Origin: Mobula hypostoma
Taxonomy: Eukaryota
DNA length: 64,000 nt
Reading direction: 5' to 3'
NCBI RefSeq assembly: GCF_963921235.1
Contig: NC_086097.1
Coordinates: 67,458,001 to 67,522,000, forward strand
Shown: positions 2,652-60,200 of the stretch, piece by piece
Layout: every line of letters begins with the position of its first letter
Numbering within the stretch: position 1 is the stretch's first letter
The notes under the pieces: generated by a model
What the model saw: the letters and a program-made list of their open reading frames with translations, nothing else
Databases searched by the model: none
Told to the model about the DNA's origin: nothing
Made by a program: the position numbers and the translations under genes

Positions 2652-3695
2652 AACACACATCAAAGTTGCTGGTGAATGCAGCAGGCTGGGCAGCACCTCT
2701 AGGAAGAGGTACAGTCGACGTTTCGGGCCAAGACCCTTCGTCAGGACTAACTGAAAGAAGAGCTAATAAGAAATTTGAAAGTGGGAGGGGGAGGGGGAGA
2801 TCCAAAATGATAGGAGAAGACAGGAGGGGGAGGGATGGAGCCAAGAGCTGGACAGTTGATTGGCAAAAAGGGATATGAGAGGATCATGGGACAGGAGGCC
2901 TAGGGAGAATGAAAAGGGGGAGGGGGGAAAACCCAGAGGATGGGCAAGGGGTATAGTGAGAGGGACAGAGAAAAAGGAGAGAGAGAAAAAGAATGTGTGT
3001 ATATAAATAAATAATGGATGGGGTATGAGGGGGAGGTGGGGCATTTGCGGAAGTTTGAAAAGTCAATGTTCATGCCATCAGGTTGGAGGCTACCCAGACG
3101 GAATATAAGGTGTTGTTCCTCCAACCTGAGTGTGGCTTCATCTTTACAGTAGAGGAGGCCGTGTTTCGACATATCAGAATGGGAATGAGAAGTGGAATTA
3201 AAATGTGTGGCCACTGGGAGATCCTGCTTTCTCTGGTGGACAGAGCGTAGGTGTTCAGCGAAACGATCTCCCAGTCTGCGTCGGGTCTCGCCAATATATA
3301 GAAGGCCACATCGGGAGCACCGGACGCAGTATATCACCCCAGCCGACTCACAGGTGAAGTGTTGCCTCACCTGGAAGGACTGTTTAGGGCCCTGAATGGT
3401 GGTAAGGGAGGAAGTGTAAGGGCATGTGTAGCACTTGTTCCGCTTACACGGATAAGTGCCAGGAGGGAGATCAGTGGGGAAGGATGGGGGGGAACGAATG
3501 GACAAGGGAGTTGCGTAGGGAGCGATCCCTGCGGAATGCGGGGGGGGGGGGAGGGAAAGATGTGCTTAGTGGTGGGATCCTGTTGGAGGTGGCAGAAGTT
3601 ACGGAGAATAATATGTTGGACCCGGAGGCTGGTGGGATGGTAGGTGAGGACAAGGGGAACCCTATTCCTAGTGGGGTGACGGGAGGATGGAGTGA
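2652..3695 (-). mobile_element. Penelope-like retroelement, 5'-truncated: GIY-YIG endonuclease plus pseudo-LTR
   Basis: ORF 2900-3505 contains PCKRNKCYTC...GVIYCVRCSRCGLLYIGETRRRLGDRFAEH...HFNSTSH (GIY-YIG with Cys/His motif typical of PLEs); RVPLVLTYHP linker in an adjacent frame. Confidence 0.92.
2712..2749 (-). ncRNA. Minimal type-I hammerhead ribozyme motif in the PLE pseudo-LTR
   Basis: Minus strand reads TAGTC-CTGACGA-AGGGTCTTGGCCC-GAAAC-GTC-GACTG: CUGANGA and GAAA core, GUC cleavage triplet, stem I AGTC/GACT, palindromic ACGT stem III. Confidence 0.8.
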
Positions 3696-17944: not shown

Positions 17945-20060
17945 TTATTTGATGAAGTCTCTCAGCCTGAAGTATCGACTGTTCATTTGCCTCCGTAGAA
18001 ACTGCCTAACCTCTTGAAGGTTAATTAATTAATTAATCAATCAATCAATCAATCTTTTCTAACCCTTTTGAAGGCTAGAGCTGCGGCTTTTAGGTCCGGG
18101 GATACCAGTTGCTACACGGAATCCAAGCGTGCACTCTGGAAAGCAATTAAGGGCGCCAAGGGGCAATATTGACCCAATTTGGAAGCCCAGACTAACCAGA
18201 GGGATGCAGGTAGACTACGGCAAGATTTAAATGAGATCACTGGGTGCAAAGAAAGGGCTGGGAATATCAATTACTGTGGCGCTTCTCTTCCTGACGAACT
18301 TAACGCATTCTACGCGAGATTTGAACAGAACAGGAGCGTCCTGCTCCCTCTGGATGAACCGGACCTGGTGGCATCGAGATTCATCGTCACCAAGGAGGAT
18401 GTTAGAAGGGCCTTCCTGAAGATAAATCCAAGGAAGGCGAGGGGCCCAGATGGCATTCCGGGACGGGTTCTCTGGGCCTCTGCAAGCGAGCTAGCTGGAG
18501 TGTTTGCTGACATCTTCAACTGCTCCTTGCTTCAGTCTAAGATCCCCTCGTGTTTTAAGAAGGCAACGATAATCTCGGTGCTGAGGAAGAGTAAGGTGGC
18601 ATGCCTGGATGAATATCGACCTGTGGCTCTGACATCAATTGCTATGAAGTGCTTTGAGCGATTGGTTATGGCACACATCAACCACAGCCTACCAGTCACC
18701 CTTGACGCTTTGCAGTTTGCCTACCAGAGCAACAGATCAATGGCAAATGCCATCTCTCTGGCCCTACATTCCTCATTAGAACACCTGGAGAATAAAAACA
18801 CATACGTAAGGCTCCTCTTCATTGACTACAGCTCTGCCTTTAATACCATAATTCCAAATAAACTGATTCCTAAACTCCAGAACCTGGGTCTTTGCACTCA
18901 GATCTGCAGCTGGATCTTCAACTTCCTCACAGCCAGGACCCAGGCTGTAAAAATAGGGGACAAGCTCTCCTCTACAATCACTCTGAGCACCGGTGCCCCA
19001 CAAGGCTGTGTACTCAGCCCCCTGCTGTACTCGCTGTACACCCATGATTGTGTAGCTAAGTTTACATTAAACTCAATATATAAGTTTGCTTATGACACCA
19101 CAATTGTAGGCCGTATCTTGGGTAATGATGAGTTTGAGTACAGAGAGGAAATTAAGAACCTGGAGGCATGGTGCGAAGACAATAACCTATCCCTCAACGT
19201 CAGCAAGACCAAGGAATTGGTTGTTGACTTCAGAAGGAGTAGCAGACCGCACAACCCAATTTACATCGGTGGTGTGCAAGTGGAACAGGTCAAAAGCTTT
19301 AAGTTCCTGGGGGTCAATATCACAAATGACCTGACTTGGTCCAACCAAGCACAGTCCACTGCCAGGAAGGCCCACCAGCACCTTTACTTCCTGAGAAAGC
19401 TAAAGAAATTTGGCCTGTCCCCTAAAACCCTCACTAATTTTTATAGATGCACCGTAGAAAGCATTCTTCTAGGGTGCATCACAACCTGGTATGGAAGTTG
19501 TCCTGTCCAAGACCGGAAGAAGCTGCAGAAGATCGTAAACACAGCCCAGCACATCGCACAAACCAATTTTCTGTCCTTGGACTCACTTTACACCGCATGC
19601 TGTTGACAGTGCTGCCAGGATAATCAAGGACACGACCCATCCAGCCAACTCACTTTTCGTCCCTCTTCCCTCCGGGAGAAGGCTCAGGAGCTTGAAGACT
19701 CATACGGCCAGATTTGGGAACAGCTTCTTTCCAACTGTGATAAGCCTGCTGAACGGATCCTGACCCGGACCTGGGCTGTACCCTCCAAATATCTGGACCA
19801 GCCTCTCGGTTTTTTTTTGTACTACCTTATTTTCCCTTTTCTATTTTCTACTTACGATTTATAATTTAAATTTTTAATATTTACTATTGATTTGTACTCC
19901 AGGGAGCGTGAAGCACGGAATCAAATATCGCTGTGATGATTGTACGTTCTAGTATCAATTGTTTGGCGACAATAAAGTATAAAGTATAACCTGCTAAGTT
20001 TCTCCAGTACTTCGTGTGCTAGCTGTTCAAGATTACTAGCATCTGCCAAACCTTTTGTTA
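17945..20060 (+). mobile_element. Old PLE-pLTR-derived short repeat (pieces ~17945-18012 and ~19987-20060) split by the Rex1 insertion
   Basis: The halves join as ...GAAACTGCC-TAACCT-GCTAAGTTTCTCCAG..., resembling the PLE pLTR 3' end; TAACCT is duplicated at 18007-18012 and 19987-19992. Confidence 0.65.
18013..19986 (+). mobile_element. Rex1/Babar non-LTR retrotransposon, 5'-truncated; RT ORF 18179-19606
   Basis: [48 protein letters not shown]; catalytic FADD is mutated to FAYD; AATAAA and (AAAGTAT) tail; TAACCT TSD. Confidence 0.95.
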
Positions 20061-37720: not shown

Positions 37721-40299
37721 CTTTCCAGTCCTTCTGCAAGGTCAACATACTCAAGAAAAATGTCTATGAGGATCAAAGTTATTAAAGTAAATTGTTTCTA
37801 TTGTATAAAACACTAGTGAGAGATAAAGCATTCTATAGCGATATTCATTCTGCTAATTGTAAAACACAAGCATCTAAAATGAAATCAAAATTTTATTTTG
37901 CCTTTAGCTTCATTTATATGGTTAGCATCTTGTTTTAGCAATGGAAGAGCCAAGAATTAATTAACCTACTCTGTTTCCAATGTACATAGCAACAGTAAAA
38001 TGGTTCATTGTTTACTCAAGTACACTATGTCCTGGATATTGTATGCATAAGGTTACATTTCAGTTCATAAGGAATGGAGGATTGCATCTGAAAACTGACG
38101 TTTGCATTAGCTTCAATAAAAACAACTTGCTATGGACGATGACACAGAATGCATTGAGTGAGTAGATTAAGTGTACTTCATTTAAATGAATAAAATTTGA
38201 CAAGTAATATTTATGAAAAATGTAATATCATGATACCACAATGATCTAATCTTATAATTTCCACTCTTTTAAATGCCACAGAAAGCCTTGGACTATCAGT
38301 CAACAAGCAAATTAACAATAGAGAGCATTTCTGATAATCCAGCAGCTCAGGACTTTAGTGATGCTGGACTGTCAAAAATTTCTGGACTAATGAATGTTAT
38401 TCCATTAATACTCCTATACTTTTTTAATGCTGTGTTTATCTTAAGAGGTTTCACAGTACTGTAATAATTGTTCCAGTGAACACAGAGTTTAAAGCATGTG
38501 CTAGAACCACTGAATTTCAAGGGAGCTTAATAACATCATCTGTGAGCCAGCTGCCAAGCCACTGGGATCTTAAAATAGTTAGATAATGTACATCCATAAG
38601 ACATTTTGCTGCACAAACCTTTTGCTTATGATTGAAGTCATATTTAAATACTTCACAATAATTTTCCCCCAATACACAATTGAATAGATAGGCCTAAATT
38701 TCATGTGCGCATTTAGTCTAGATTGGTTAAAGAGTAGATGATGGTCAATATTACTACAATTTCTATCCACGTTTCTATCAGCAACCTAGGACAAGCAATT
38801 TCACCTCTTTACAAATAGTTAACCTTCATAGACCCTCCTCTATCAGTTCAGATCGTTTCATTAAATACTTACTTAGTACGCTTGCCATTTTCTCAACTGA
38901 CATGAATTGATTTGGCCGATTAGCTCCCCTTCTCCTCTTACTGCTTATATGTCAATAGAAAATTTTTGTTTATACTTTTCATTTTACTGCCAATCTTTTC
39001 CCACAACCCTCATTGCCATTATTTCCCTTTACAATTCTTATAAGAACTTTCTGTAATCAGACTGGCTGCATCTGGCATGCTGCTGCACATTCATATTAAC
39101 CTGACATACTGCCCTTCTGATTAAGTCTGTCTCTTTGGTTAGCTGCACAGATCTCTCATTAATTGCCTAGCTTTCTAGTGGAAGAACATATATCCCAACC
39201 TGAACCAGCTACTTAAACTCTTGGCAAAATCTGTCCAGTTTTTGATTTCATTTTATCTGGACATATCAACTCTTATCTTAATACAATTGATATTTCAATT
39301 GACTATTACTCCCATAAAGAGGTTCTCTACCAAGCTGACCCCTGGTAACAAATGGCTTCCATTTTTACAGAAATCCTGTTCATAAGTCAAAATATGCATA
39401 AAAATTACCCAATGTGGTAACCATATTAGAATGAATAGTAGCACAGGAGACTGGTAAGAAAGAACAATTACAGAAAAAACTTGTCCTGATGTTCATTGGA
39501 ATATATGAATTTATGTATGTTAGAATTTTGAGTTTAATATTATGGAAGCTCATTTGTATGTAAGGGTGTCCATATATCGGGCAGTCTTAACTCAGGACAC
39601 CTATTGTATAGCTGTTCAAAACACTTTGATACTATGATCACTTTTCCTCATGTTTTCACACTCACAGATGGTCTACTTGACCCTCCTTAATCCATCAAAC
39701 AAATTTAGCAAAGCTTTATTTCCCATTTGGCTTTAAAGCTTTCTCTCCCATTTGTTATATTTAATTTTTTTTCAGTAAGATTTTCCTGAACACACCTCAA
39801 AAATATCTCATCTATGACCTTATATTATTGACTATGTCAGTCTACATTAAGCTTTCTATTGTTTTTGCACATCTCTAAACTTTTCCTGCAGATTTGTGCC
39901 AATATATTCTTCACACAACTTGGCAGCATATCAAATACTCCTATTAGTGCAAAGTCATTCCTGTTTCTTAACTGAGTAGGTTTTGATCACTCCAGGACAC
40001 TTTCTCTCTAACACTAATATTCTCCTTATCAATACTGCCACCACCCTTTCTTTCTACTTTCTTACGTTTCCCGAAAACTCTGTTTTCTGACAAATTCAGT
40101 GTCAATTGTGACCCTTTAAACTGGACCACAACATCATAATCCCACTCCTGGCTCTCCAACCTGGCTCACCTCCACGACACCAAGGAATTTCAAGAGGACA
40201 TGGGTCCCAGCTCTCTTTATTAAATGCAAGCAAAGGTTTCTCCCAAACTCAAATGAATTTCATTCCCTACCAAATTTTTATCCTTTATATTCCGTAGAA

Positions 40300-40847
40300 A
40301 CTACATTCCACGTTTTTCTCTAAATAACACGCCGCCATCCTGATTTTGGTATTTATCACCATGTCCTCATCCTGCCAATGTCTAAATCCAGGAAATTTCA
40401 GTCGAAAAACAGCGGGCGGGAATAGCTTCATCCTAAAACTACATTGATTTAAGATTATGATTGTTCATCACCTTTGCTAGACAATCAGGGAAGAACAATA
40501 ATCAGTATTAATTTTGCCAGTGACTCCCACGACTAGTCCACGGATTTAATGAAGCACAACTATTCGTTTCCGAAAATAAATTGGTCACATGTCCAAGAGT
40601 ATAAATAAGAACAGCGTGGTGCAAATCCAGCGCAGTAATATACTTTCTGATAAGTATAACAAAACTTTTATTTAGCAATAACTCTGACAACTTCATGGAC
40701 TCGTCTATAGCGGGATGGCAGAAATCGTTTTAAAGGTTCGAACCAATGGAAAATGTTTCGAAAGCGCGTGCACGTATTATAAAGCGAAGGTTGATTCGGC
40801 TATGCAATATGCTTGACTTTAGAACGAATCATTGGGAATAGTTGAAT
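40300..40847 (+). promoter_or_regulatory. Putative promoter of exon 1A: GC box, CCAAT, inverted HRE dyad, TATA box
   Basis: GGGCGG 40414-40419; CCAAT 40743-40747; GCGTG-CACGTA 40766-40776; TATAAA 40778-40783, 70 nt before ATG 40848; CpG density rises sharply here. Confidence 0.7.
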
Positions 40848-42197
40848 ATGATGACACGGTTTGAGGAATGTAAAAAACAGCAACAGCAGCACGGTGGACG
40901 CGTGCAGGCGCGGCTGCAACCCGAGAACAGCTCGCGGCACCTCGACAGCTCCGAGCAAGAGGCGGCTGCGTGCACGCGCACCAGGTTCGAGGAAAAGCAG
41001 CCAGCGCAGGGTCGGGACTGTTTGAAGACCAACACAAATCTATTTGACTTTGGCGTGTCGGACTCTATGCTCCCTTGGCTAGAAAAGGGAAACGGAACTG
41101 CACAATGCAAACGAGTAAGTGACACGGAGCCAGCGAGTTTACCGGAGACTTGTTATCATGCTTCTGAAGTGAAAAACATGGAAAATAAACCCGATACCGG
41201 AGCCCACGATGCGGACACCACGCGCCAACTGAGACAGGTCGCTGCGGAACCTTACAGCGGCACGAGCGGGATTCGACAGCTCGCGCAAGGTGACAGCGCA
41301 GGCGGGTCGGTTACGGAACCTGACCGCGCGACTGAACTCGAACGGCTGTTTGTGCGAGCCGGCGGCGCGAGCGGGCTGGTGGTGGGACGCTCGGGGGCTC
41401 CTGACAGTTCGGGAAGCTCCAGCGCCAAACTATTCAGTGAGCTTGACAACTGCGAGGGCGGGAGCGCGCCCCCGGCAAACTGGGATTGCACGGAACCACC
41501 ACGCAAACGCCTGTGTTCCCAAGCACTCAACAAACACGCGGACATGTCGTTTGACACGTACAGCACGAACTCTCCACATGCCAGCACGGTTCGCAGTATT
41601 CCACTGGTGCCAACCCAAATGCCAACAATGCACGGAGATTCTTCTTTGGACCCCATGAATAAACTTCTCAGTGACAGCTCAAATAGTTTAGAAAATGACA
41701 AACTGAAAAGAAATGCAGATAGCGAGGATGAAGTACCAAAATGCTCCAAGGATATCTCGAATAACCAAGTAAAATGTGATTCACAGGTGGTATCTGATAC
41801 CTTGAATAAACATCGTTGCCCTAAAACAGCAACCAATAAAAGAATCAGTTTATCCAGGCTGGTGTTAGAGCACATAGCACCTTGTATGAATCAATACGGC
41901 TTATGTTTTGTAGATGACTTCCTGGGGCACAAAATTGGTGACAAAATATTACAAGAAGTCATTGCTCTTCATCAGAGTGGCAATTTTGAGGATGGAGCGC
42001 TGGCAGGTCAGAGTACCAATTCAGATAAAGAATTAACTGCTTCAACCAATAAAACAATTCGTGGCGACAAAATAATGTGGGTGCAGGGTACTGAGCCGGG
42101 CTGTGCATCTATAGGACAACTTCTACAGAGAATGGATAAACTTATATTGCATGCAGATGGGAAATTTGGGCACTACAAAATTAGAGGAAGACACAAG
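40848..42197 (+). CDS. HIF prolyl hydroxylase (EGLN/PHD) long first coding exon 1A: low-complexity N-terminus plus PHD1/PHD2-like N-half of the catalytic domain; probably an alternative first exon of egln3
   Basis: 450 uninterrupted codons; LVLEHIAPCMNQYGLCFVDDFLG...IRGDKIMWVQGTEPGC...GHYKIRGRHK aligns with PHD2 [23 protein letters not shown]...IRGDKITWIEGKEPGC...GSYKINGRTK; ends at AAG|GTTAGT, the conserved EGLN intron position. Confidence 0.9.
40860..41640. other. CpG island over the 5' part of exon 1A
   Basis: Dense CG dinucleotides and high GC in an otherwise CpG-depleted, AT-rich window. Confidence 0.8.
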
Positions 42198-43364
42198 GTT
42201 AGTAGCCAAAATTATATAAACCAGCATGAAAGCATTGAATACATATTTTACAAAATTAACATGTTTGATTTCAATAACAATAATGTCATGATAGTGATAA
42301 AAATTGTTCTTTTGCATTAAGTGCTCTTTAAGAGCTTTTAAAATACACTGTTACCAACAATCCAATAAAATTATCTAATATTAAGAATTATTGGCTAAAC
42401 TAGAAAATAGTACATGAGGAAACAAATTCATATACATGATTGAAAACAGTTTTCTTAACATGTAGAAGGTTCATTGAACATTAACAGATATTAATTTGCT
42501 TTTAGTTGTAAATTTATGATTTTCAGGTGAAGATTTGCTCCATATGAATTAAAAAGGGTAGCAATTTGTGTTCTCTTTTTATCTCTGGACTTTGATCTGC
42601 TAATCCAGGAATAAAACATAGGCATGAATGGGAAGAACCACAATACTATTGAAGAAATAGAAATTCTAGCTCTGAAAATCATTATATTGTATGAATTCTA
42701 CATCTTTGAACAGCAGCTTATCCCCAGAGTAACAAGAATCAATATTAGAGCTGAGATGCAAAAGGTGGGAGGGTTCCATCATTAACCAAGTAACAACAAT
42801 GACACAAAAGCAAAATACTGTGAACGCTGGCAATCTAAAATAAAAATGGGAAAATCTGGAAATTCTCTGCATGTCAGGCAGTATCTGTGGAGAGAGAAAT
42901 GCAATCAACATTTCAATGATCCTTCGTGAGCTGAAAAGTAACGAAAGATTGTTGTGAAGACTGAAGGAGACAGGGTGAAAAGTTTGAGCAGGAGCTGAGA
43001 ATTGGGGGATGTAAACTCCCAGCATCATGGTGTGAGAAAGAGTAATAGATGGGATGCAGCATGAATTAGGAAGAGAACACTGCAATCATAAGCTAAATGA
43101 GAGGGAAGATTATAACACTAGTTCACAAACAAGAGAAAATCTGCAGATACTGGATTTATCTTGCCATTAGTTATTTAGCTTGCCAATTATATCAGGATAC
43201 TCATAGAAGTATAGTCAGTGTTTGATACTGAGTTGTGTTTCTGGTCAAAGAGGTTAGTTTTAAGGAGTGTTGTAAAGTTAGAGAATAAAATGAGGAAGAA
43301 AGGAATAAGGGAGATGGAATTCCAAAACCAAGACAGCCCAAGACAAGACTCTAATAGTAGGATT

Positions 43365-43760
43365 ACTTACTTACTGTCCGTTATGCTGCTGGTGTTTACA
43401 GCAACAATGAATGTCCTTCATATCCGTCTGTCCTTGGCGGTGTTCAGGGTTTCCTTCATCGTGCCAGTAGCTTTCACTACTGTCAGCCATGCAAGTCCCA
43501 GGTGGAGACTCAGGAATACTACTGCACACAGGCGTTGAAGGATTTTGCAATGCTGTTTCTGTTACAGTTTTGTTTGACCAGTCAGGGTTGTCAGCCTGGA
43601 GGACTGCTGGACCACTCTTCATCTGGCCTCTACCTTTGGACTGGGTGACCCTACCAAGAGCCAAAGCATAAAGTGCTGACTCTAGCCAACATAACTATGT
43701 TGGGTCATTGAGGTACACAAGCCTCCAAACCATGGCAAGGTTATGGTCCTCTTGGAGGTC
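43365..43760 (-). mobile_element. RTE-like LINE/SINE 3' end with (TAAG)n tail
   Basis: TTACTTACTTAC tail at ~43363-43374 followed by an RTE-like 3' segment; family assignment tentative. Confidence 0.5.
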
Positions 43761-43854
43761 TAACGCTGGTATAAAGCAAAGGTAAATGAGAGGTTAAGAT
43801 ATGGAGGAACCATAAATTTCAGAGCACTATCTGATTTAAGAGCTTACACAATTT

Positions 43855-44500
43855 TATTTTATTTAGAGATACAGTACAGAATAGGCCCTTCAGGCCCTTT
43901 GAGCCATTCTGCCAGCAATTCACCGATTTAATGCTAGCCTGACCATGGGACAATTTACATTGACCAATTAACCCATTAACTGGTACGTCTTTGGGCTGTG
44001 GAAGGAAACCTGGGCACTCTGAGGAAACACATGCATTCATGAGGAGACGTACAAGCTCCTTATCGACAACGTTGGAAATGAACTCCAAACTCCAACACCC
44101 AAATTTTAACAGTGTTGCACTAACCACTATGCTACTGTAGTGTGGCACGGAAAGGATTATTCGGCTTGTCTAGTCTGTGTTGGCTTCCAGCAGAAAAAAC
44201 CCATCAATCATAAGCCCCCTTTTTATTTCCCTGCAGATCTGCAATTTATTCTCTTTTATGTGCCCACGAACTGTCCTTTGATTTATTTGCCTCTTGGGAA
44301 TACTGAAGGGGAATTTACAGTTGCTAATTAACTCAACAATCCAAACCTCATTTGGTTGTTGAAGAAAAAAGATTACATGGTTTAAATGCACATGCGCACA
44401 GGGAGAACAATACATGGACAGTGCTCGAGGTTGGGATCAAACACGAACAATGCTCGAGGTCATTCAAGCTGTTAGGCAGCAGTGTCAAGAACTGGGCCAT
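43855..44500 (-). mobile_element. Two adjacent tRNA-derived SINE copies (~43855-44140 and ~44190-44500)
   Basis: Minus-strand head GTAGCATAGTGGTTAGTGCAACACTG (A-box-like), GTGTGTTTCCTCAGAGTGCCCAGGTTTCCTTCCACAG core, CR1-like tail. Confidence 0.7.
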
Positions 44501-44599
44501 AGTATCATCCAAATGCAGGGTTGAGAAGTGATATGGCTACAAGGCAGAAGCGAGATTTGATCAAAAGGATGAAGGATTTAAATCTGAGGTTTTGCCACT

Positions 44600-45265
44600 T
44601 CCATAAGGTGCTTAGTCGCAGCAGCCTCTCCAAGACCAACAAATGGTGCAAATTTTTTGTCTTAAACGTTTTTCTTGTGATTGCAAAACCCTGTTAGATA
44701 TAGGTAATGCAAAATGTAGTAAGTCTGGTTCAATAGTTTATTGGCAAGACCAATGGCAGAGGAGCTGTGTGGCCTCAGGTTGTTGTGCGAACCAGACACT
44801 CATGGTGCGGCGTCATCTCTTGCAGCCACCCAGAGGCGGCGGCACTGGAGACGATGTGGGAGAGTACAGAGGCATGGTGGGTGCTCTTAAAATCTATGCT
44901 GAGTTGGGGGCTGGCCCCTACAGGCCGACTCTCCTATCAGTATTGCTCTCCAGTGTTCGCTCCCTGGAAGAAAAGCGGGATTGCCTTCGTCTGCAGCTGA
45001 CCCCAACTGGAACTTGCTGTGTGTTTATTCTTGCAGAAACATGGCTCCAAGATAACATCCCATGTACCACCAGTGTTCAGGCCAGGCCACTCAGGGAACT
45101 GAGCTAATATCATTTTGTGACTGTATGTGCTATTATAATTATTGTTATGTGCTGCATGAGGTGTGACTGTGTGCTACGTTTTGCACGTTGGCCCTGGAGG
45201 AACATTGTTTTGTTTAGCTGTATACAAAATGTATTGTTGAATGACAATTAAGCTTGAACTTGAAC
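44600..45265 (+). mobile_element. Non-autonomous Rex1-derived element (5' end, endonuclease start, 3' tail)
   Basis: LLSSVRSLEEK...CCVFILAETWL (APE N-terminus) joined to a 3' end with (TTGAAC)n tail. Confidence 0.6.
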
Positions 45266-45889
45266 GTCCTAAATGAGAACCAATATAAGTCAGCAAGCAA
45301 GGAAAAGGGTAAGCAAGACTAACTTTGCATGAGCTGAAATTTTATGTAATTCTTAAGATAACATATAACATAAAACAGGGCAGCACATGAACATGCTGTT
45401 TGACACAATGTCTGTGCCAAACAGAATGCCGAATAAAGGGGGTTAGAAATTAACAGACGCAGAGGCAGAGACGGAGATGGTGAAATTAGAGAGGTGGAGA
45501 TAGGTATCTTAGCTGATAGAAAGAAAAGTATGTAGATCTCAGTTTATTGTCATATATTATGTTGTTAACAATGATTCACATACAGCATTTTGAAAGACAT
45601 GGTTATAGAGATAGTGGTTAGTCTGGTTATCATCTTTATATAATTTCCAATAGATTGGAGGGTGACTACACTATTTAATAAGGAAGAGATAAAACATGGA
45701 ACTGATGCCAGTGCTAGAAAAATGCTACAATCTCTAATGAACGAAGCAATAGAAGCCTTGTAGAGAATAATAGCATTGAACAAAGTCAGTACGAATTTAT
45801 GAAAATAATGTATTTGACCAATATGCTGGAGGTGGTTGAGGATACGTCTTAAGGGTGAACCAGTGAATATGGTGCATTTGGACATTTAT

Positions 45890-47790
45890 ATAATCATAAA
45901 GTCATATAGCATGGAACAGGCCTTTAACTACTGGTCCATGCCAACCAAGGACTCCAATCCAAGTTAGTCCCATTTGCCAGAGTCTGGCCCCCAACATTCT
46001 AAACTTTTCCAATATGGATTTCCAATCCATGTGCCTGTCCAACTGTCTTTTAAAAGATAGTTACTGTACCTGCCTCAACCACTTCCTCTGGCAATTGATT
46101 CCACATAGATACCACCCTTTGAGTAAAAATGTTGCCCTTCAAGTTTCTCTTAATTAGTTTTCTGCTCACCTTAAAACTAGTTTTTGATACCCCAACTCCA
46201 GAAAAATAACTCACCCTATCTATGTCATTCATGATTTTATACACATCTAGAAGATTACCTCTTGATCTCCAATACTCTAAGGAGTAAAGTCCCAGCCTGT
46301 TAAAACTCTCCCAATAACTTAAGTCCTGGCAGTATCCACATTAACTCGCTTATGCACTCCTTCCTGTTTATACCAGGGTAACCACACCTGAACACAATAT
46401 TGCAAGCGTGGCTTCACTAGTGTCCTGTACTTTCACATTGTGACCTTCCAGCTTTTATGCTCAATGCTCTGACTTATGAGGCCAGCTTGCTAAGAGCCTT
46501 CATCATCACCCTATCTACCTGGACATTAAATGAACCATGAAACTGTGCTCCTGACCAAGGTTCCTCTGTTTTACAACACCCCTTATGGTCCTGTCAATTA
46601 CTGTAAAAGTGCTATCTGGATTTGACTTTCCAAAATACAACATCTTGCCATTATCCAAATTGAACTCCATTTGATATTCCTCAGCTCAATTACTTAACTG
46701 ATTAAGATTCCTCTGTAGTTTCTGATTATCTTCTTCATTGTCTGCTATACCACCTATTTGAGTGTCCCCTAAAAACTTACTAATCGTGCCTTGTACATTC
46801 TTATTCAACAGATGACAAATATCAATAGGCCCTGCAATGACCCCTGAGGCATACTACTAGTCAAGGGCCCTGAGTCTGAGAAAAAACCTTCTACCATCAA
46901 GCAACTCGTGTATCCAATTAGTCAGTTCTCTCTGGATTCCATGTGATCTAACTTTCAAGGGCAGCCTACCATATGGAACCTTATGAAAGGCCTTACTGAA
47001 GAGTATAAAAACTGTGTCTGCCACCCTGACTTCATCAACCTTCTTGGTCACCTCATCAAGATCTCAAGTTCATAAGACATGATCTCTCATGCACAAAGCC
47101 ATGCTGACTACTCCTGCCTTTCTAAATGCACATTTATTTTATTACTCAAATTCCTCGCCCCAGCTTACCTAACATAGATGTTAGATTTACTGGCTTAATC
47201 CCCAGGGTTATCTTTGCCAGCTATCTTAAATAAAAGCACAGCATTCACTACCCTACAGTTTACCTGAAAACAACAATGATACAAATAATTCAGCCAGGGC
47301 TCCCATAATTTCTTCTCTAGCATCCCACAGTGTTTATAAATAACCAGGTCGTGTCCTGGAGATTTGTCTACTTTTGTACCTTCTCTACTGTAATACAGAC
47401 TAACGCAAGGCCATCCCATTTAATTTTACTAGTTCTGAAGCCATCATGTCTTTCTCCACAGTAAAAACAGAAGAGAAATATTCATTAAGAACCTTGCCCT
47501 TCGACAGCTACACAGAAAGGAGTCCCCTCTGGTCTTTAAGGGATCCTGTTCCTTCTCCAGTTACTCTTTTTTTTCTTAACAATGCTTAAAAATTCTCCCT
47601 TGATTTTCCTTCATCTTCTCTGCAAAGCTACTGCATGCTCCCTTTTTGTCTACTCTAATTTCCCTATCAAGTACACTTTTGCATCTCCTACACTGTTCCA
47701 GGGATTCACTTGATCCCAACTGCTTGTAGCTGACCCATACCTCCTTCTTTATCTTGCCTAGGCCTCAATATCCCTCATCATCCAGCCTTG
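45890..47790 (-). mobile_element. Decayed CR1 LINE
   Basis: FSKAFHKVPYGRL...RSHGIQ; FTQRVVSMWNQLPEEVVEAG; VDKSPGHD. Confidence 0.85.
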
Positions 47791-47829
47791 CCTTGATTTG
47801 AATTGTTTTGATAAGAAATAGCCGGTTTG

Positions 47830-48770
47830 ACAATAAGGTTATAGTGTATGGAATTGGGAGTAATTACACAAATATTGATATAATCAGGCAAAAAGGAAAA
47901 ATCATCCACTTTGTGTCTATCGTGGTCCTGTAGAGATATTAGCTATTTGATTATTGATATATATCAGTGATTCGGTTGAGAAAAGTTAATGTCATAATTT
48001 CATTTTGCAGTCGACATTGTTTGCATGGAAAAAGAAGTAAAGAGGATTGGAGATGGGAGGATGGCAACATAGGTAAACTGGGGTAATGGATGAGAACACA
48101 GCAGATGAGTGAAAAATGTGAAGTCATGTATTTTGATATACAAGGAGAAAACCAGAGCATTTTATAAAATGATGACAGAGAGTATGTTGATGTTCCCAGG
48201 AATCTAGATATGCTTGCACACAAGTCACTGAAAGCCAACATACAAATGAAACAAGCAATTTGTAAGTAAATATAATGTTTGGCTTTAATATGAGATTTGA
48301 ATAATAGAGAAAGGATATATGGACATTGCATATGGAGTTTTGGTATCCCTGCCCAAGAAGGGAAGTAGTTGACATCGAGGGAGTGCAGGAATGACTGACT
48401 AGACTGTTTCTTGAGTGGCATGTTTGAGTAGACCAGGGCTGTTTTCTATAGTTTAGAAGATTGAGTGGAGAGCTCATTGAAACCTATGAAGTCCTCACAG
48501 GGCCAAACAAAATGAATGTATGCAGGATGTTATCCTAGAAACAGAGGTTGTAGTTTAAGAATAACATGCAAGCAAATTAGGACCACATTGAAGAAAAAAT
48601 TATCTCACTCAGGGTAGTTAATCTTAGGAGGTCTTAGAGTGCTGTAGACGCTCTGTTGTTGAGTTCATTTTCAAAAGAGAATTGATAGATTTCTGGATAT
48701 TAAGGGAATCATGCAATATGCAGGAAAATTGTGCTGAGGTACTAGATCAACTCCTACTCCTTATATTCAT
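47830..48770 (+). mobile_element. Very old CR1 RT/3' remnant
   Basis: Degenerate colinear similarity to 49200-50250. Confidence 0.55.
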
Positions 48771-48917
48771 ATACTGTATATCTGTCACACCATATCCACA
48801 ATTATGGTGCAAATGTAACCTGAATCCAGAAGATATATTGTATGGAGGAGTCTCATTCTGTTCCACAATGGAGTGATTTTAGGTGCTTTGTACCATATTT
48901 TATATGGTGCTTTGTAG

Positions 48918-50295
48918 TAGGGATAGTCCGGGTAATTATAGACCAGTGAGCCTCACGTCTGTGGTGGGAAAGCCATTGGAAAAGATTCTTAGAGATAGGA
49001 TCTATAGGCATTTAGAGAATCATGGTCTGATCAGGGACAGTCAGCATGGCTTTGTGAAGGGCAGATCGTGTCTAACAAGCCTGATAGAGTTCTTTGAGGA
49101 GGTGACCAGGCATATAGATGAGGGTAGTGCAGTGGATGTGATCTATATCGATTTTAGTAAGGCATTTGACAAGGTTCCACATGGTAGGCTTATTCAGAAA
49201 GTTAGAAGGCATGGGATCCAGGGAAGTTTGGCCAGGTAGATTCAGAATTGGCTTGCCTGCAGAAGGCAGAGGGTGGTGGTGGAGGGAGTACATTCAGATT
49301 GGAGGATTGTGACTAGTGGTGTCCCACAAGGATCTGTTCTGGGACCTCTACTTTTCGTGATTTTTATTAACGACCTGGATGTAGGGGTAGAAGGGTGGGT
49401 TGGCAAGTTTGCAGACGACACAAAGGTTGGTGGTGTCTTAGATAGTGTAGAGGATTGTCAAAGATTGCAGAGAGACATTGATAGGATGCGGGAGTGGGCT
49501 GAGAAGTGGCAGATGGAGTTCAACCTGGAGAAATGTGAGGTGGTACACTTTGGAAGGACAAACTCCAAGGCAGAGTACAAAGTAAATGGCAGGATACTTG
49601 GTAGTGTGGAGGAGCAGAGGGATCTCGGGGTACATGTCCACAGATCCCTGAACGTTGCCTCACAGGTGGATAGGGTAGTTAAGAAAGCTTATGGGGTGTT
49701 AGCTTTCATAAGTCGAGGGATAGAGTTTAAGAGTCGCAATGTAATGATGCAGCTCTATAAAACTCTGGTTAGGCCACACTTGGAGTACTGTGTCCAGTTC
49801 TGGTCACCTCACTACAGGAAGGATGTGGAAGCACTGGAAAGGGTACAGAGGAGATTTACCAGGATGCTGCCTGGTTTAGAAAGTATGCATTATGATCAGA
49901 GATTAAGGGAGCTAGGGCTTTACTCTTTGGAGAGGAGGATGAGAGGAGACATGATAGAGGTATACAAGATAATAAGAGGAGTAGATAGAGTGGATAGCCA
50001 GCGCCTCTTCCCCAGGGCACCACTGCTCAATACAAGAGGACATGGCTTTAAGGTAAGGGGTGGGAAGTTCAAGGGGAATATTAGAGGAAGGTTTTTTACT
50101 CAGAGAGTGGTTGGTGCGTGGAATGCACTGTCTGAGTCAGTGGTGGAGGCAGATATACTAGTGAAGTTTAGGAGACTACTAGACAGGTATATGGAGGAAT
50201 TTAAGGTGGGGGCTTATATGGGAGGCAGGGTTTGAGGGTCGGCACAACATTGTGGGCCAAAGGGCCTGTACTGTACTGTACTATTCTATGTTCTG
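48918..50295 (+). mobile_element. Young 5'-truncated CR1 LINE in the intron between exons 1A and 1B
   Basis: NYRPVSLTSVVGK, IDFSKAFDKVPH, GVPQGSVLGPLLF, KFADDTK; a single in-frame TAG at 49237-49239 splits the RT; CTATTCTATGTTCT tail. Confidence 0.95.
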
Positions 50296-51299
50296 TATTT
50301 ATACCAGATAAGAACTAGAACAATAACTATTATTCCAGTCAATTCCAAGGTGCATTATCAACTCAAGAATGATGCTTAGACAATGGAAAACTAATCAAGA
50401 CCATGGTCATTTTGGATGCTTTAAATGAAGGTGGAGAAGGGAGGCATAAACATTGATGAGTTAATGTTGCTGTTCAACTTAGTTTAAATGCACAGTTAAG
50501 TAATGATCTTATGTTCTTCTATTACACACATCACATAAACAAAAATTATAATTTTTTTTAAAGGTTATTAATGAATATTTCTCCTGTTTTTACTGTTGAA
50601 AAAGACATGAAGGCTTCAAAACTAGAAAATGATTTTGAGAAGTTATATTAGTGCTTAAGTTCATACATTATTAATGAAGCAACATAATCTTTAACTAATA
50701 ATTAACATACTGGAACATATTTGGTCAGCGAATCCATTGTTTTCCAGATATGCCGTATTTGCCTCTCATTCCTTAATTGGTCAAAAGTATGCTACTTTTA
50801 GTAAGTCATTCCGTTATAAACGAACAACAGAAATTGGAATAGGCCATTTGGCCCATAAGCTTGCTTTGTATTTGGGTATTTCTGAAAAGGCTTAATTAAA
50901 TTAATAATTAGATTTCAAACGATCACATTAAAACTATAAGATATACTCAGCTAGTTAAACGCCCTGAATAGAGGGCAACTGATGTAACGTTTCAAATTAT
51001 GACAGCTTATCAGAACTTGAAAAAGTTAAAGATAATCAAATGGGAAGGAAAAAATAAAAGTTTCATGATGATGTGGAAAGCAAAAGTTAAACAATGAAAT
51101 ATATATTGCTGTAAAGTGAAATAAAACTTAAATGTTTCTTCCTTCACCTTTCCGTGCCAGTCAGAATCACCAAGAAAAGTGACATTAATATGGCGAGGTC
51201 GTTGAATAATTCGCTTATTTTGATTGAAGAAATGACTAATATGGGGAATTTTGCACTACTGGGAGACTGGATGGAGGGGGTATTGTTTTTATCCACCTA

Positions 51300-51663
51300 T
51301 CTGATTGCTGTGCAAATCGACGCGATATTGCCTACATGCTGCGCTGGGATTCCTCAATGGCGACGAGGGCTGGGCCTACCCACAAATGTTCCCGGCACCT
51401 CCCACTCGCACACTGGGCACGTCGCATCTAGTGAGTAATGGCACGTCCCCCGTTCTCTGGTTTGAAGTAGTCCAGTGCGCAGCTGCCTTTAATTCCGGCG
51501 ACGTGGGTGGGTAGATCGGCGCCGAAGTGAGAAGGTTTTTGCGACCTATCTGGCTATGAGTAAGAAGCGGTTTATGAATTAACAAACATATCAGGTGGAA
51601 TCCCCGGTCAAAAGTTTCTTCAAATTGGCGACACATTCGACAAATAGCAAAAAATATAGCAGG
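51300..51663 (+). promoter_or_regulatory. Putative CpG-rich promoter/5' UTR of exon 1B with clustered HRE cores
   Basis: CACGT at 51418-51422 and 51442-51446, ACGTG at 51501-51505; local CpG enrichment. Confidence 0.65.
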
Positions 51664-52002
51664 ATGTTTTCAGACCTTGAGAAGCTGGCGAAAGAGTGTA
51701 TCGTACCTCGTTTAAACGAACATGGTTATTATTTCATTGACAACTTTTTGGGAAGAATGATCGGCGATTGTATTTTTGAAGAAGTACGAAATTTGCATTT
51801 TGTTGGAGAGTTACGGGATGGACAGTTGGCTGGTCGGAGAACTGGTTACTCCAAAAGACACCTGCGGGGTGACCAAATTGCATGGATCAGGGGCTCCAAA
51901 GACAATTGCAATGCAATAGACTTCCTTCTTTCATCACTTGATAAACTTGTAATGCTTTGTGGAGGGAAGTTGGGACATTATAACATAAAAGACAGATCTC
52001 AG
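51664..52002 (+). CDS. egln3: EGLN3/PHD3 first coding exon (1B)
   Basis: MFSDLEKLAKECIVPRL...IDNFLG...LRDGQLAGRRTGYSKRHLRGDQIAWI...YNIKDRSQ aligns with PHD3 [15 protein letters not shown]...LDNFLG...LRDGQLAGPRAGVSKRHLRGDQITWI...YYVKERSK; perfect donor CAG|GTAAGT. Confidence 0.92.
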
Positions 52003-53274
52003 GTAAGTTATCACCAACATTTGGCATTAGGCACGTCACACTTGATAAGAATTTGCTTTACTTAGTTTGACTAAGTTAGTAAGTATAGGTTATATTATTG
52101 AATTAGGTCAAACGTATCGGGTACTATCAGCAGATTTTTCAGCTCCAGCTTCAGAAGTTGACTTTTAAGAGTTATTTTCTGTATATTTCAGAATACTGTC
52201 AATTCAGTTTCTCTAATAATTGGTAGTGTTCTTTATTAGTTTACTTTGATAATTTAACAGTTTACTTTGAAGTTTCTTGGTTTTGAGTTTTAGTTGAGAA
52301 GAATGTACCATATCACAGCATCACAGTAAGTTAATGCTATTTTGCAAGCAACTTAATTGACGTGTATTTCTTCTAAAGTGCAAAATATCTTTAGCATAAT
52401 ATTTCCAGATCATGGTACTGCTAGCTATTTCATAGCTGCTGATTAGTTCAAAGTTTGTTGTGTTCTGGTTTGCTAGTTTAAATGTTCTGGGGGAGAGATT
52501 CTGCCATTGTGAATCAAAACAATGCTTTATGAATTGATTCCAAGTACTAGTAGCTGAAGTTTAGGGCCTTCATCTGCCCAAGGACCAAATTTAGTAATTA
52601 TTGCCATAAGTTACTCCACTCAGTTGCACTTGCCTCTTTTAAGGCATTTTTAAAAAATCTACCTACCTGATCAAGCCATCCTTATGTGATGTGCTGTCAT
52701 ATTTCGTTCATACCTTAATGTTTATACAACATTAATTGTGCCATTTAAACAATGCTTGTTCATTGTTATCGAATAGGTTAAGATTGTAGAAGGCAGTTGA
52801 GCCAATCATGATTTTTAAAAGACTGGACTTCTTAAAATGCATCATTTGTTTGGATTGTCTTTGAAAATCACCTTCGATATCTGGGTGAATTTGGATTAAA
52901 CTGTATGTGGTACCTTGAGAGTAGAGATGGGTGTGGAAGGTAGTTCTTCCATGAATGGCACACAGACATCCTTTGATGTTGGATGTGTTGATATAATTTT
53001 GGGTGGTTTTAGCATTGCTGAGTTCAAGGTGCCAAATTACAGTTACCAGCTTTAGTTTAATCAGGACTAATATCTACAGTTCATTTCCAAGAAGGAAGTA
53101 TGTTGTTATGTTACCTGAACAGGATGTTCATTTGTTAGATATCTATGTACTGATAATGTTCATAGGGCCCCTTTTGAATTGTGTAAACCCAATTTTAAAT
53201 TGCACTGGTCGTGCTCCTTCCATGATGACATTTTCAAAGCTGTAAGATGGCCATTTGAGATCCTATTCACTGTT

Positions 53275-57204: not shown

Positions 57205-60200
57205 ATTTTTTTAAATACTTTATTTTCAAAATTTTCAAAAAAAATCAACAAAAACGTACCAACTCAGACATGTATAAAAAAGAAATAAATAAAAAGAAAG
57301 ACATAACATTAGAGGAATGCCTATTGTACAAAGTGCTCAAAAATACTAAACATTAAGCTGGGGGGGAAGTTGCTCATCCACCCCCGGCCTCGGCCAGGTA
57401 GGCAAGAAATAGATCCCAGATAGCCGAAAATTTTTTAATTGAATTGGTTCTCAAGAACCTAAGTTTCTCCATTTGTATGACTGAGATCATATCAGCCATC
57501 CATCTCCGAAAGGAAGGGGGAGAGAGTGATTTCCATTTCCTCAAGGTAAGTCTTTTGGCAACAATCATCCCCAGCATCAGAGACTGTTGTATGGCTGCAG
57601 GGAAACAAATAGTAGATTGCGAGCAGCCAATTATAGCGAGACCAGCTTCCAAGGGAAAGGATCTTTTATAGGCCTTTGAGTACCAGTGGAATATTTTGGA
57701 CCAAAATTCAGTCAGTAATGGGCAAAACCAAAAGGTGTGTGACAACGTAGCTTCCATCCCTTGGCATCTATCACACATTGGCGAGACAGAAGGGTAAATC
57801 CTGTGCAATCTAAGTTTAGAGTAATGGAGACGGTGGACAACTTTAAACTGGATCAGTTGGTGCCTGCTGTTAACAGAGCAAGCCTGTATCATAGACAAAC
57901 ACTTATCCCAGGCAGTTTCAGATAATTCAATGCCCAACTCCTCTCTCCAGGCGTCTCTAATCTTCACAGTAGATGCTACAGTGCAATTATCAAACAAACG
58001 TACAAACTTAGAAACGAGATGCCTGGAGTCAGGAGGGTTCTTTAAAATATCAAAAAAAACATATGTTTCCCTGGAAGGATTTCAAAATTACGAATCTTTG
58101 ATTGAATGTAGTGTCTAATTTGCAAATAATGAAAAAAGTGCGAATGAGGCAGCTCAAATTTCTTTTCCAGCAGACTAAATGTTGCAAACCGTCCCTCTAT
58201 GTACAGGTCTTCAGTAGAAACTAGACCCTTCTCCCTCCAAGCATGGTAGGTTTTATCTAACCATGAGGGTAGAAAGGAGTGATTGAAACAGATTGGTGTT
58301 TGTACAGAGGTCTCTGGTAAATTCAGAACGCTCCTAATCTGATTTAGAATTCTGACGAAATTTTTCAAAACAAAACTCAAACTTTTTGAACTTCCAGGCC
58401 CCTCTAACTTGAAGAACAGCATGGCTGGCAAGGAGGAATTGACAACAGAGTTGGACTCCATACATAGCCACAAGGGAGCCCCAGGGGCTAGGTTATCCGG
58501 AGTCCCCTGTTGCCAAAACATTAAAGCCCTAGCAAAGACAGCCCAATAATAGTGTCTAAATACAGGTAATTCCAGCCCTCCTTCAGACTCGGGCTTTTGT
58601 AAATGAATTTTCGAAATTGTGTGATTCTTATAATTCCAGATATAAGACAATATTATGGAGTCCAACTCTTTAAAGAAAGCTGATATAAGAAAAATGGGGA
58701 GATTTTGACAAAGATAGAGAAACCTAGGAAGGGAAACCATTTTAATTGAGTTTATACGACCAATCATGGACAGAGGTAGGGTTTTCCAACTTTCTATATT
58801 CTGTTTAAGTTTTGAAACTCGGCGAAGTTTAATTTGAATATTAATTTAGGATCTTTGGGGATTATCAAGCCGAGATAAGTAAAATGATCTTTAACCACTT
58901 TGAACGGGACAGTTTCCAAAAAACCCTGCGTGTAGTCGTTGGAGAGGGGCACAAAGTCACTTTTTGTCCAATTGATTGAGTATCCCAATATTCTGCCAAA
59001 AGAGGTGATTAAATCTAGAAGAGGGACTGACTTTTCTGAGTTTTGTAAGAGTATCACATCGTCAGCATATAAACTAATAAGTGTTTCAATACCTCCCACT
59101 TGCAAACCCAGAATATTTGGGTGACTTCTTATTTTTAAGGCAAGGGGCTCAACCGTGACGGCAAAAAGGGCCAGCGAGAGAGGGCACCCCAGCTGGACTG
59201 AACGGTGTAGGGGAAACAGAGTTGACTTGTCACCATTAGTTATAATACAGCACATTGGGCTGGCATATATCAGTTTTACCCAAGATACAAATGACTCGCC
59301 GAACCCAAACCTGTACAGTGACTCAGACATGTAAGGCCATTCAATCTGGTCAAAAGCCTTTTGTGCATCAAGGATAAAATTGCTGCCCCATTAGCTTTCC
59401 CATGATCAGCATATATAGTACTAAGGAGGCATCTGACATTGGAAAAAGAGAACCTACCCGGGACAAACCCTGTCTGATCAGGATGGATAATAACCATATA
59501 ACAATTTCAGCGTGGAAACAGGCCATCTTGGCCCTTCTAGTCCATGGCGAACTCTTACTCTCACCTAGTCCCATCGACCTGCAGTTAGCCCATAATCCTC
59601 CATTCCTTTCCTGTCCATATAGCTATCCAATTTAACTTTAAATGATAACATTGAACCTGCCTCAACCACTTCTGCTGGAAGCTCGTTCCACACAGCTACC
59701 ACTTTCTGAGTAAAGAAGTTCCCCCTCATATTACCCCTAAACTTTTGCCCTTTAACCCTCAACTCATGTCCTCTTGTTTGAATCTTCCCCCTCAATGGAA
59801 AAAGCCTATCCTCGTCAACTCTATCTATCTCCCTCATAATTTTAAATACCTCTATCAAGTCCCCCCCTCAACCTTCTACGCTCCAAAGAATAAAGACCTA
59901 ACTTGTTCAACCTTTCACTATAAGTTAGGTGCTGAAACCCAGGTAACATTCTAATAAATCTCCTCTGTACTCTCTCTATTTTGTTGAGTCATCATCTCTT
60001 TAGTATAGTCCGGGAAGATCAAGACCTTGTTTCCCTTGTACTGCATGGGTTGTAGTCTGCTGCGGTGCAGGATCAGCTCTTACACTTGAAAGTGATGGAT
60101 ACGTGCCAAGATGGTGCGCGGTTTCCTGCTGGCAGCCGGCTTCAGATAGAGAGAGTGATGCGCATGATCGACTTTAACCGGATATGGGAAATGCTCTTCT

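Follow-up and report, generated by a model that had tools for sequence, protein, structure and literature searches.

A described parallel to the locus considered here is fatiga of Drosophila, a single prolyl hydroxylase (PHD) locus that yields long and short isoforms from alternative transcription starts (PMC2928329). In the accessible part of that report, exons 4-7, coding for the whole hydroxylase domain, are common to FgaA, FgaB and FgaC, and FgaA adds a MYND finger. The gene egln3 of the ray Mobula hypostoma is likewise a PHD locus with a long and a short form. A stretch of 64,000 nucleotides from this species (NCBI RefSeq assembly GCF_963921235.1, contig NC_086097.1, positions 67,458,001 to 67,522,000 of the forward strand; this whole stretch is called the window) contains two homologous coding exons, termed 1A and 1B, that very probably serve as alternative first exons of egln3. 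Unlike fatiga, ray egln3 would exchange half of the catalytic domain itself, and ray 1A is without a MYND finger according to Pfam. The parallel with fatiga drawn in an earlier note on this DNA thus stands as regards the production of PHD isoforms from one locus, but it does not extend to the catalytic domain, which the fly isoforms share in full.

A second comparable system is the substitution of tandem-duplicated exons, as described in the accessible parts of two reports (PMC9741552, PMC8373072). As in that system, 1A and 1B are homologues in tandem that agree in phase and in their 3' boundary, and each mRNA would carry one of them. Unlike in that system, it is promoter use and not internal splicing that would decide between the exons of egln3, and their lengths differ fourfold. 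Isoforms touching exon 1 or the N terminus are also described for the EGLN3 locus itself, namely human PHD3-delta1 and PHD3-delta4 and the extension of rat SM-20. In the accessible text of PMC3963164 these are internal deletions of exon 1, deletions of exon 4 and an extension of the same exon, and none involves a paralogous N-half. Residues that set substrate selectivity are exchanged in PHD2/PHD3 chimeras and point variants, which are engineered human proteins (PMC5007464, accessible part); in the natural swap all eight of these residues would be exchanged at once, and the natural 1A is a mosaic known from its sequence.

The same feature, a 1A-type exon placed on the exon that codes for AMVACYPG, is present in the RefSeq/Gnomon EGLN3 X1/X2 models of Hemitrygon akajei, Carcharodon, Lepisosteus, Danio rerio, Malaclemys and Sphaerodactylus. 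The arrangement is thus already contained in public gene models and is not new as a gene structure. These models are computed and come with no published analysis, and the elasmobranch 1A in them is about 250 residues longer at the N terminus than the bony-vertebrate form. In the full-text literature, with subscription journals largely outside the search, no paper on a second EGLN3 first exon was found. The words "isoform" and "first exon" are absent from the accessible text of a 2024 survey of fish EGLN genes, which cites Rytkonen et al. (2011) as having suggested three EGLN genes in fishes. Two PHD3 transcripts were reported for Megalobrama in 2016 (PubMed 26697748; summarized in PMC8772553), the second of which may or may not be the 1A form.

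The organization regarded as highly probable for the ray is one egln3 gene with two promoters, each driving its own first coding exon. Both 1A and 1B would be spliced in phase 0 to a common exon 2, which codes for AMVACYPG...HVDNP. The two mRNAs would give rise to two enzymes that share the Fe(II)/2-oxoglutarate-binding half but differ in the catalytic N-half, in which helices alpha1-alpha3 and the beta2/beta3 substrate loop are located. The 1B form would be canonical PHD3 of 233 residues. The 1A form, of about 570 residues, would consist of a disordered extension of 334 residues, an N-half with ancestral PHD1/2-type residues and the common C-half.

Both exons lie on the forward strand. Exon 1A (40848-42197) is a stop-free frame of 450 codons that begins with MMTRFEE and terminates with GHYKIRGRHK. 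Its first 334 residues (40848..41849) form an N-terminal extension in open frame that is predicted to be disordered, with predicted local distance difference test (pLDDT) scores mostly <50 in the model of the 93%-identical Hemitrygon orthologue. The following part (41850..42197) specifies the N-terminal half of the catalytic PHD domain and corresponds to human PHD2 up to K297. Alignments place an insertion of eight codons, KELTASTN (42027..42050), in the beta2/beta3 substrate loop, within a region of low model confidence (residues 384-403); insertions of about 8-11 residues occur in this loop in the three chondrichthyan 1A exons displayed. Exon 1B (51664..52002) comprises 113 codons of a canonical PHD3 N-half, terminates with GHYNIKDRSQ and is 100% identical over residues 1-113 to M. 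hypostoma EGLN3 isoform X2 (233 residues).

Residues 335-450 of 1A and residues 5-113 of 1B are 41% identical (E 1e-29), and human EGLN1 structures match both exons to the same last residue, the K297 equivalent (E 4e-33 for 1A and 4e-27 for 1B). The homology of both N-halves to human PHD2 residues about 181-297 places them among HIF prolyl hydroxylases. A Pfam search of 1A and 1B alone revealed no family in either, MYND included; Pfam is silent on the isolated exons because its models need the C-half. Both exons consist of whole codons, and their donors, AAG/gttagt of 1A (42198..42203) and CAG/gtaagt of 1B (52003..52008), are therefore in phase 0. The 1A frame stays open for 41 codons beyond its donor. 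Both start codons are preceded by in-frame stops, TAG at 40839-40841 for 1A and a stop just ahead of 51583 for 1B. Translation, mutual alignment and the structure matches thus bear out what had been proposed in the earlier note: two intact exons coding for the same PHD segment, each with a stop upstream of its ATG and each ending in phase 0 at the homologous donor.

The genome contains four N-half exons and three sets of exons for the Fe/2-oxoglutarate-binding half. A query with 1B gave six matches in the 3.48-Gb assembly, of which four are N-half exons with E <= 1.7e-17 (two on contig C1, which carries egln3, and one each on C2 and C40) and two are at chance level. A query with the 120-residue C-half of an orthologue gave 11 matches, nine of them in three three-exon sets (on C1, C2 and C40) and two at chance level. 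The gene on C2 is EGLN1 (it carries a MYND finger, seen by eye), and the gene on C40 groups with EGLN2. The first exon of this EGLN2-like gene (G000:C40:6316729-6320040, minus strand) has an N-terminal extension with about eight tandem copies of a unit of roughly 16 residues, VTVSPGTQLDTSA(A/G)TR(L/W).

In the whole window no AMVACYPG/HVDNP exon was detected by sensitive tblastn with the full orthologue, the best match outside 1A and 1B having an E value of 0.32; this agrees with the earlier failure to see such an exon between 1A and 1B or in the following part of the window. Exon 2 of egln3 starts at C1:67538928 behind ttttcag (ttttcag/GCAATGG), equivalent to window coordinate 80928, that is, 16.9 kb beyond the window end, 38.7 kb from the 1A donor and 28.9 kb from the 1B donor. 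Exons 3-5 are located within about 13.6 kb after exon 2. The HVDNP motif is encoded in exon 2, which is outside the window and would be common to both isoforms.

These counts bear on the alternative of two tandem genes, in which 1A would be part of a further EGLN paralogue equipped with catalytic exons of its own. Several databases do name 1A as a separate gene, "egl nine homolog 1-like" in Callorhinchus, Amia and Hemibagrus and "uncharacterized LOC" in Scyliorhinus and Mustelus. The assembly, however, contains only three C-half sets, none of them in the window, the interval from 1A to 1B included, the 1A contigs described below leave the genome at the donor with a continuation that matches nothing in 38000-52500, and 7 of the 11 protein models fetched from other species join 1A to the EGLN3 C-half. 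A separate gene for 1A is therefore considered extremely improbable.

Transcription of both exons is evident from four runs (X1-X4) of one organism, in which all sampled words of 1A are present and whose contigs were compared with positions 38000-52500. The runs are read as RNA because their contigs follow the exon borders and intron depth is near 0, with values of 0 to about 3 in the flanking intron bins. In all four runs a 1A contig extends from 40606-40665 to 42198 (depths 31.5, 22.2, 87.1 and 61.5) and a 1B contig from 51420-51538 to 52003 (depths 35.1, 30.4, 53.5 and 206.8). Contig depth is unfit to rank genes, and these values are used only to state that 1A and 1B are of the same order of magnitude. 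Upstream of the 1A start codon, the untranslated exon sequence covers at least 40606..40847, as given by contig starts that are unable to fix the true transcription start, and no contig of the four runs within 38000-52500 connects this part with upstream sequence.

A CpG-island-like promoter region and separate contig starts accompany each exon; both are first exons and not internal exons selected by splicing. For 1A, the CpG-island-like stretch (40400..41650) takes in the promoter together with the 5' portion of the exon, with observed/expected CpG of 1.08-1.56 vs 0.29 in the whole window. For 1B, it comprises the promoter and the 5' untranslated region (51200..51663), with values of 0.97-1.08. 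The CpG-rich upstream region that had been ascribed to each exon is thus found as regards CpG density, but G+C upstream of the 1A start codon is only 0.37-0.38, and 0.58-0.63 is reached only within the exon.

The contigs also carry information on splicing. In all four runs each 1A and 1B contig runs past its donor, with one letter that coincides with the intron g and 27 loose letters that match nothing in 38000-52500. The 1B overhang, in run X4 at 52003, is CAATGGTGGCCTGCTATCCAGGGAATG, the exact start of exon 2 behind ttttcag. Since 1A and 1B share only the final AG, a graph of 31-letter words would break both paths after 28 exon-2 letters if both led into one exon 2, as is seen; the length of 31, which we take to be the word length of these contig assemblies, fits the description of the index. 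The identical break point of the 1A and 1B contigs implies the same junction for 1A, and this is strong indirect evidence for a 1A-exon 2 junction in this species. Under the shared-exon model, the sequence across that junction would be ...GACACAAG, followed by G and then CAATGGTGGCC....

Junction reads from both donors to the AMVACYPG exon had been suggested as a check of the arrangement; the one from 1B was read in the overhang, and the one from 1A is implied by the common break point. No joint from 42197 into 42198-52500 is among the joints listed for the four runs. Likewise, no contig in these runs links 1A to 1B, a result to be read with the fact that contigs cannot prove the exclusive use of one exon per mRNA. 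Exon counts, RNA contigs and the models of related species agree with the earlier proposal that 1A and 1B are first exons sharing the downstream Fe/2-oxoglutarate exons, and that promoter choice would swap about half of the catalytic domain, the N-half being different and the C-half common.

With the 1A protein as query, 7999 candidates were scored and 18 proteins passed E <= 0.001: 13 elasmobranch models, a whale shark protein from another source, and proteins of Callorhinchus, a caecilian, a gecko and a fly, the last being a PHD. Window 1A is 93% identical to Hemitrygon akajei isoform X1 (570 residues). In the seven fetched proteins mentioned above, the 1A-type ...GRHK is joined directly to AMVACYPG; the remaining 4 of the 11 show read-through of the donor, a short foreign tail or a mis-joined structure. 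When the N-half of the caecilian model served as query, 84 of 86 candidates passed E <= 1e-10, and 61 of these 84 proteins have named species. The named 1A-type rows belong to rays, sharks, caecilians, turtles, squamates, lungfish, reedfish, paddlefish, gar and bowfin, and among teleosts to tarpon, eels, a mormyrid, an anchovy, catfishes, knifefishes, characins, cypriniforms and a salmonid. The 61 named rows, which cover annotated proteins only, include no mammal, bird, crocodilian, frog or salamander. Cluster look-ups add 1A forms of Danio rerio (XP_005169871.1, 271 residues), Salmo, Oncorhynchus, Megalobrama, goldfish and sturgeons, and RefSeq names the 1A form "EGLN3 isoform X1/X2" in dozens of species.

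Complete frames spanning the border of 1A and exon 2 are present in two assembly contigs (1065 and 1243 bases) of cypriniform-like fish. These contigs are too short to hold the intron, so the frames stand intron-free. The AMVACYPG junction is absent from 23 of the 84 proteins, all from assembly contigs, which are thus genomic exon-only frames. Mis-joined models of gecko, horned lizard and carp contain a full 1A-type and then a full 1B-type N-half, and a whale shark model contains partial ones, indicating the same order of exons in those genomes. In the Cyprinus carpio models (397-405 residues) a 1A-type N-half, a 1B-type N-half and the C-half stand in one frame; this joined form is either a gene-prediction artefact or a 1A-to-1B spliced transcript, and the ray data show no joint of this kind. 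The 1A-type exon is named EGLN1- or EGLN2-like in Callorhinchus, Chelydra, Atractosteus, Hemibagrus, Amia and Astyanax, which is a recurrent misannotation of an EGLN3 first exon.

For phylogenetic analysis, 230 N-half segments were reduced to 146 rows for a quick tree (named rows, together with others of >=100 residues and <80% identical to a kept row). A careful tree was then built from 71 rows and 108 columns, with 75 invertebrate rows dropped and four deuterostome outgroups kept. The 1A exons form a clade of 37 rows (support 99/95, stem 0.23). The 1B exons form a clade of 13 rows (support 100/99, stem 0.55), which includes mammal, frog and chimaera EGLN3, and the position of the ray 1B N-half inside this vertebrate PHD3 N-half clade assigns 1B to the EGLN3 orthology group. 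In the 71-row tree the 1A N-half is not inside the canonical PHD3 N-half clade. It therefore belongs to EGLN3 through the shared exons and not by descent from a PHD3-type exon.

Within each clade the best tree separates chondrichthyan from bony-vertebrate branches, with weak support (97/58 in 1A and 94/54 in 1B). The presence of both branches in both clades places 1A and 1B in the last common ancestor of jawed vertebrates. As judged from this tree, the exon pair predates the split of cartilaginous and bony vertebrates. As to their origin, 1B may have arisen by duplication of 1A within EGLN3, or 1A may be the remnant of a tandem gene copy. In the approximately unbiased (AU) test, a position of 1A outside is not rejected (p 0.33).

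The choice between NODD and CODD, the N- and C-terminal degradation domains of HIF-alpha, is shaped in PHD2 by eight residues, V241, S242, K244, I251, I280, R281, I292 and G294, whose equivalents in the CODD-selective human PHD3 are A, G, R, L, V, L, V and E (PMC5007464, accessible part). The same source describes PHD2 I251L as about 5-fold CODD-selective, and PHD3 R65K and L73I as variants that gain NODD activity. All eight residues precede K297, so that all are located within exon 1 and are exchanged together by the exon swap. At these sites, in the same order, window 1A has A, G, S, I, I, L, I and G, a mosaic, and window 1B has A, G, R, L, V, M, I and D. Across the 1A clade, I251 and I292 are each present in 37/37 rows, G294 in 36/37, I280 in 34/37 and K244 in 17/37; across the 1B clade, L251 is present in 12/13 rows and D or E at 294 in 11/13. 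The PHD1, PHD2 and invertebrate rows have the same states as 1A at 251, 292 and 294, which indicates that 1A has kept ancestral states and that 1B is derived. The earlier description of 1A as PHD1/2-like therefore holds for the ancestral residues that it has kept, but not for orthology, since 1A forms its own clade, weakly sister to 1B. By virtue of these differences, the exon swap may shift the preference for NODD vs CODD of HIF-alpha, or its regulation.

The level of conservation differs between the two parts of exon 1A. Its catalytic half is identical to that of Hemitrygon at 116/116 positions and to those of sharks at 99-102/116 (85-88%), and its extension at 303/334 (91%) and 161-193/334 (48-58%), respectively. 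The fast evolution of the extension could point to 1A as a decaying relic of an old duplication, transcribed but with a product that is not a working enzyme. The absence of 1A-type models for mammals, birds, crocodilians, frogs and salamanders (among the 61 named of 84 proteins) fits this view, in that it suggests that the exon is dispensable. Against it stand the intact 450-codon frame, the conservation of the catalytic half between two ray genera and with sharks, the short branches across a 37-row clade that spans cartilaginous and bony vertebrates, the retention of I251, I292 and G294 in 36-37 of the 37 rows, and a 1A contig depth of the same order as that of 1B in four runs, itself a poor measure. 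A relic of this kind is thus very unlikely, and two promoters with two functional first exons are the preferred interpretation.

An AlphaFold2 model of the Hemitrygon orthologue, based on a 39-sequence alignment, contains a folded domain at residues 335-561 (pLDDT mostly 70-94) that includes the uncertain loop 384-403, while residues 1-330 are without secondary structure. The protein assembled from 1A and the C-half is accordingly modelled with the double-stranded beta-helix fold of PHDs. Residues H466, D468, H527 and R536 of this orthologue are invariant in 39/39 aligned sequences. Presumably they correspond to H313, D315, H374 and R383 of PHD2, as the spacing is the same. The 1A protein is a putative active hydroxylase.

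Several points weigh against a single egln3 gene whose 1A exon supplies a second working enzyme. Runs X1-X4 are taken as RNA from the behaviour of their contigs and are not recorded as RNA. The 1A-exon 2 junction in the ray is deduced from the length of the overhang, and the 1A form is a putative enzyme. Window 1A is PHD3-like at 3 of the 8 selectivity sites (241, 242 and 281), so that a purely PHD2-type selectivity is not to be expected. Support for 1A and 1B as sisters is weak (84/74), and the AU test rejects neither a placement of 1A in the PHD2 group (p 0.33) nor one of 1B outside all other vertebrate N-halves (p 0.077). Finally, some 1A transcripts may not reach exon 2. The models of Scyliorhinus canicula and Callorhinchus read into the intron, Heterodontus X2 (492 residues) ends in a short, foreign alternative tail, and in one run there is an intronic contig at 42207-42383 with a depth of 10.3 vs 87 for the exon.

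The last observations, together with the frame that remains open past the 1A donor, would agree with a truncated, N-half-only protein as the main product of the 1A promoter, made by read-through or with an alternative last exon and acting as a regulator rather than an enzyme. Such an outcome is given very little credence here: in 4/4 runs the genome match of the main 1A contig (depth 22-87) breaks off precisely at the donor, and three of the runs have no cover just past it. Splicing of 1A to the common exon 2 remains the favoured fate of its transcripts.

No other recognisable gene was found in the window, only retroelement fragments, with RVT_1 matches from E 1.5e-28 to 2.7e-13. A reverse-transcriptase fragment in the 1A intron (48883..50235, forward strand; RVT_1 E 3.3e-15 and 2.7e-13 in two adjoining frames) is not part of the gene. 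It has a frame break at 49239/49240 and a summed RNA-contig depth in the thousands, as for an expressed repeat family. Further reverse-transcriptase fragments with RVT_1 matches are located at 18173-19606 on the forward strand, where the frame also matches the 42-residue ALKBH8_N model (E 1.2e-11), and at 57374-59390 on the reverse strand. Two intronic stretches, 42840-44291 and 45744-46227, show high summed RNA-contig depth of about 90-2300, and a joint from 43875 to 48468 with non-canonical ends (AC..TG) and only 21 letters on its shorter side is present in all four runs; these stretches and the joint are most likely repeat-derived. An open frame of 221 residues at 2900-3565 (reverse strand) matches GIY-YIG weakly, with E 4.4e-4 and short of the curated cut-off, and is possibly a remnant of a Penelope-like element.

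Within the oxygen-sensor trio, PHD3 is regarded as the short member, induced by hypoxia and selective for CODD, and phd3 of zebrafish serves as a standard read-out of hypoxia. The gene models and the ray data raise the possibility, put forward tentatively and at somewhat less than even probability, that EGLN3 of non-mammalian jawed vertebrates conceals a fourth, functional HIF prolyl hydroxylase. This isoform would carry an ancestral substrate half (Ile251, Ile280, Ile292 and Gly294), may act on both NODD and CODD or be under a control other than that of the hypoxia-inducible PHD3 form, and would have been lost in mammals and birds, a loss judged solely from absence among annotated proteins. 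Its age would exceed 450 million years. The meaning of a second, ancestral-type PHD3 substrate half in most non-mammalian jawed vertebrates, zebrafish included, appears unexamined in print. If EGLN3 of fishes and reptiles does also give rise to an enzyme with a PHD2-like substrate half, egln3 knock-outs, reporters and expression counts in these animals would mix two enzymes. The exon pair would also be a natural experiment on which half of the PHD domain sets the choice of substrate.

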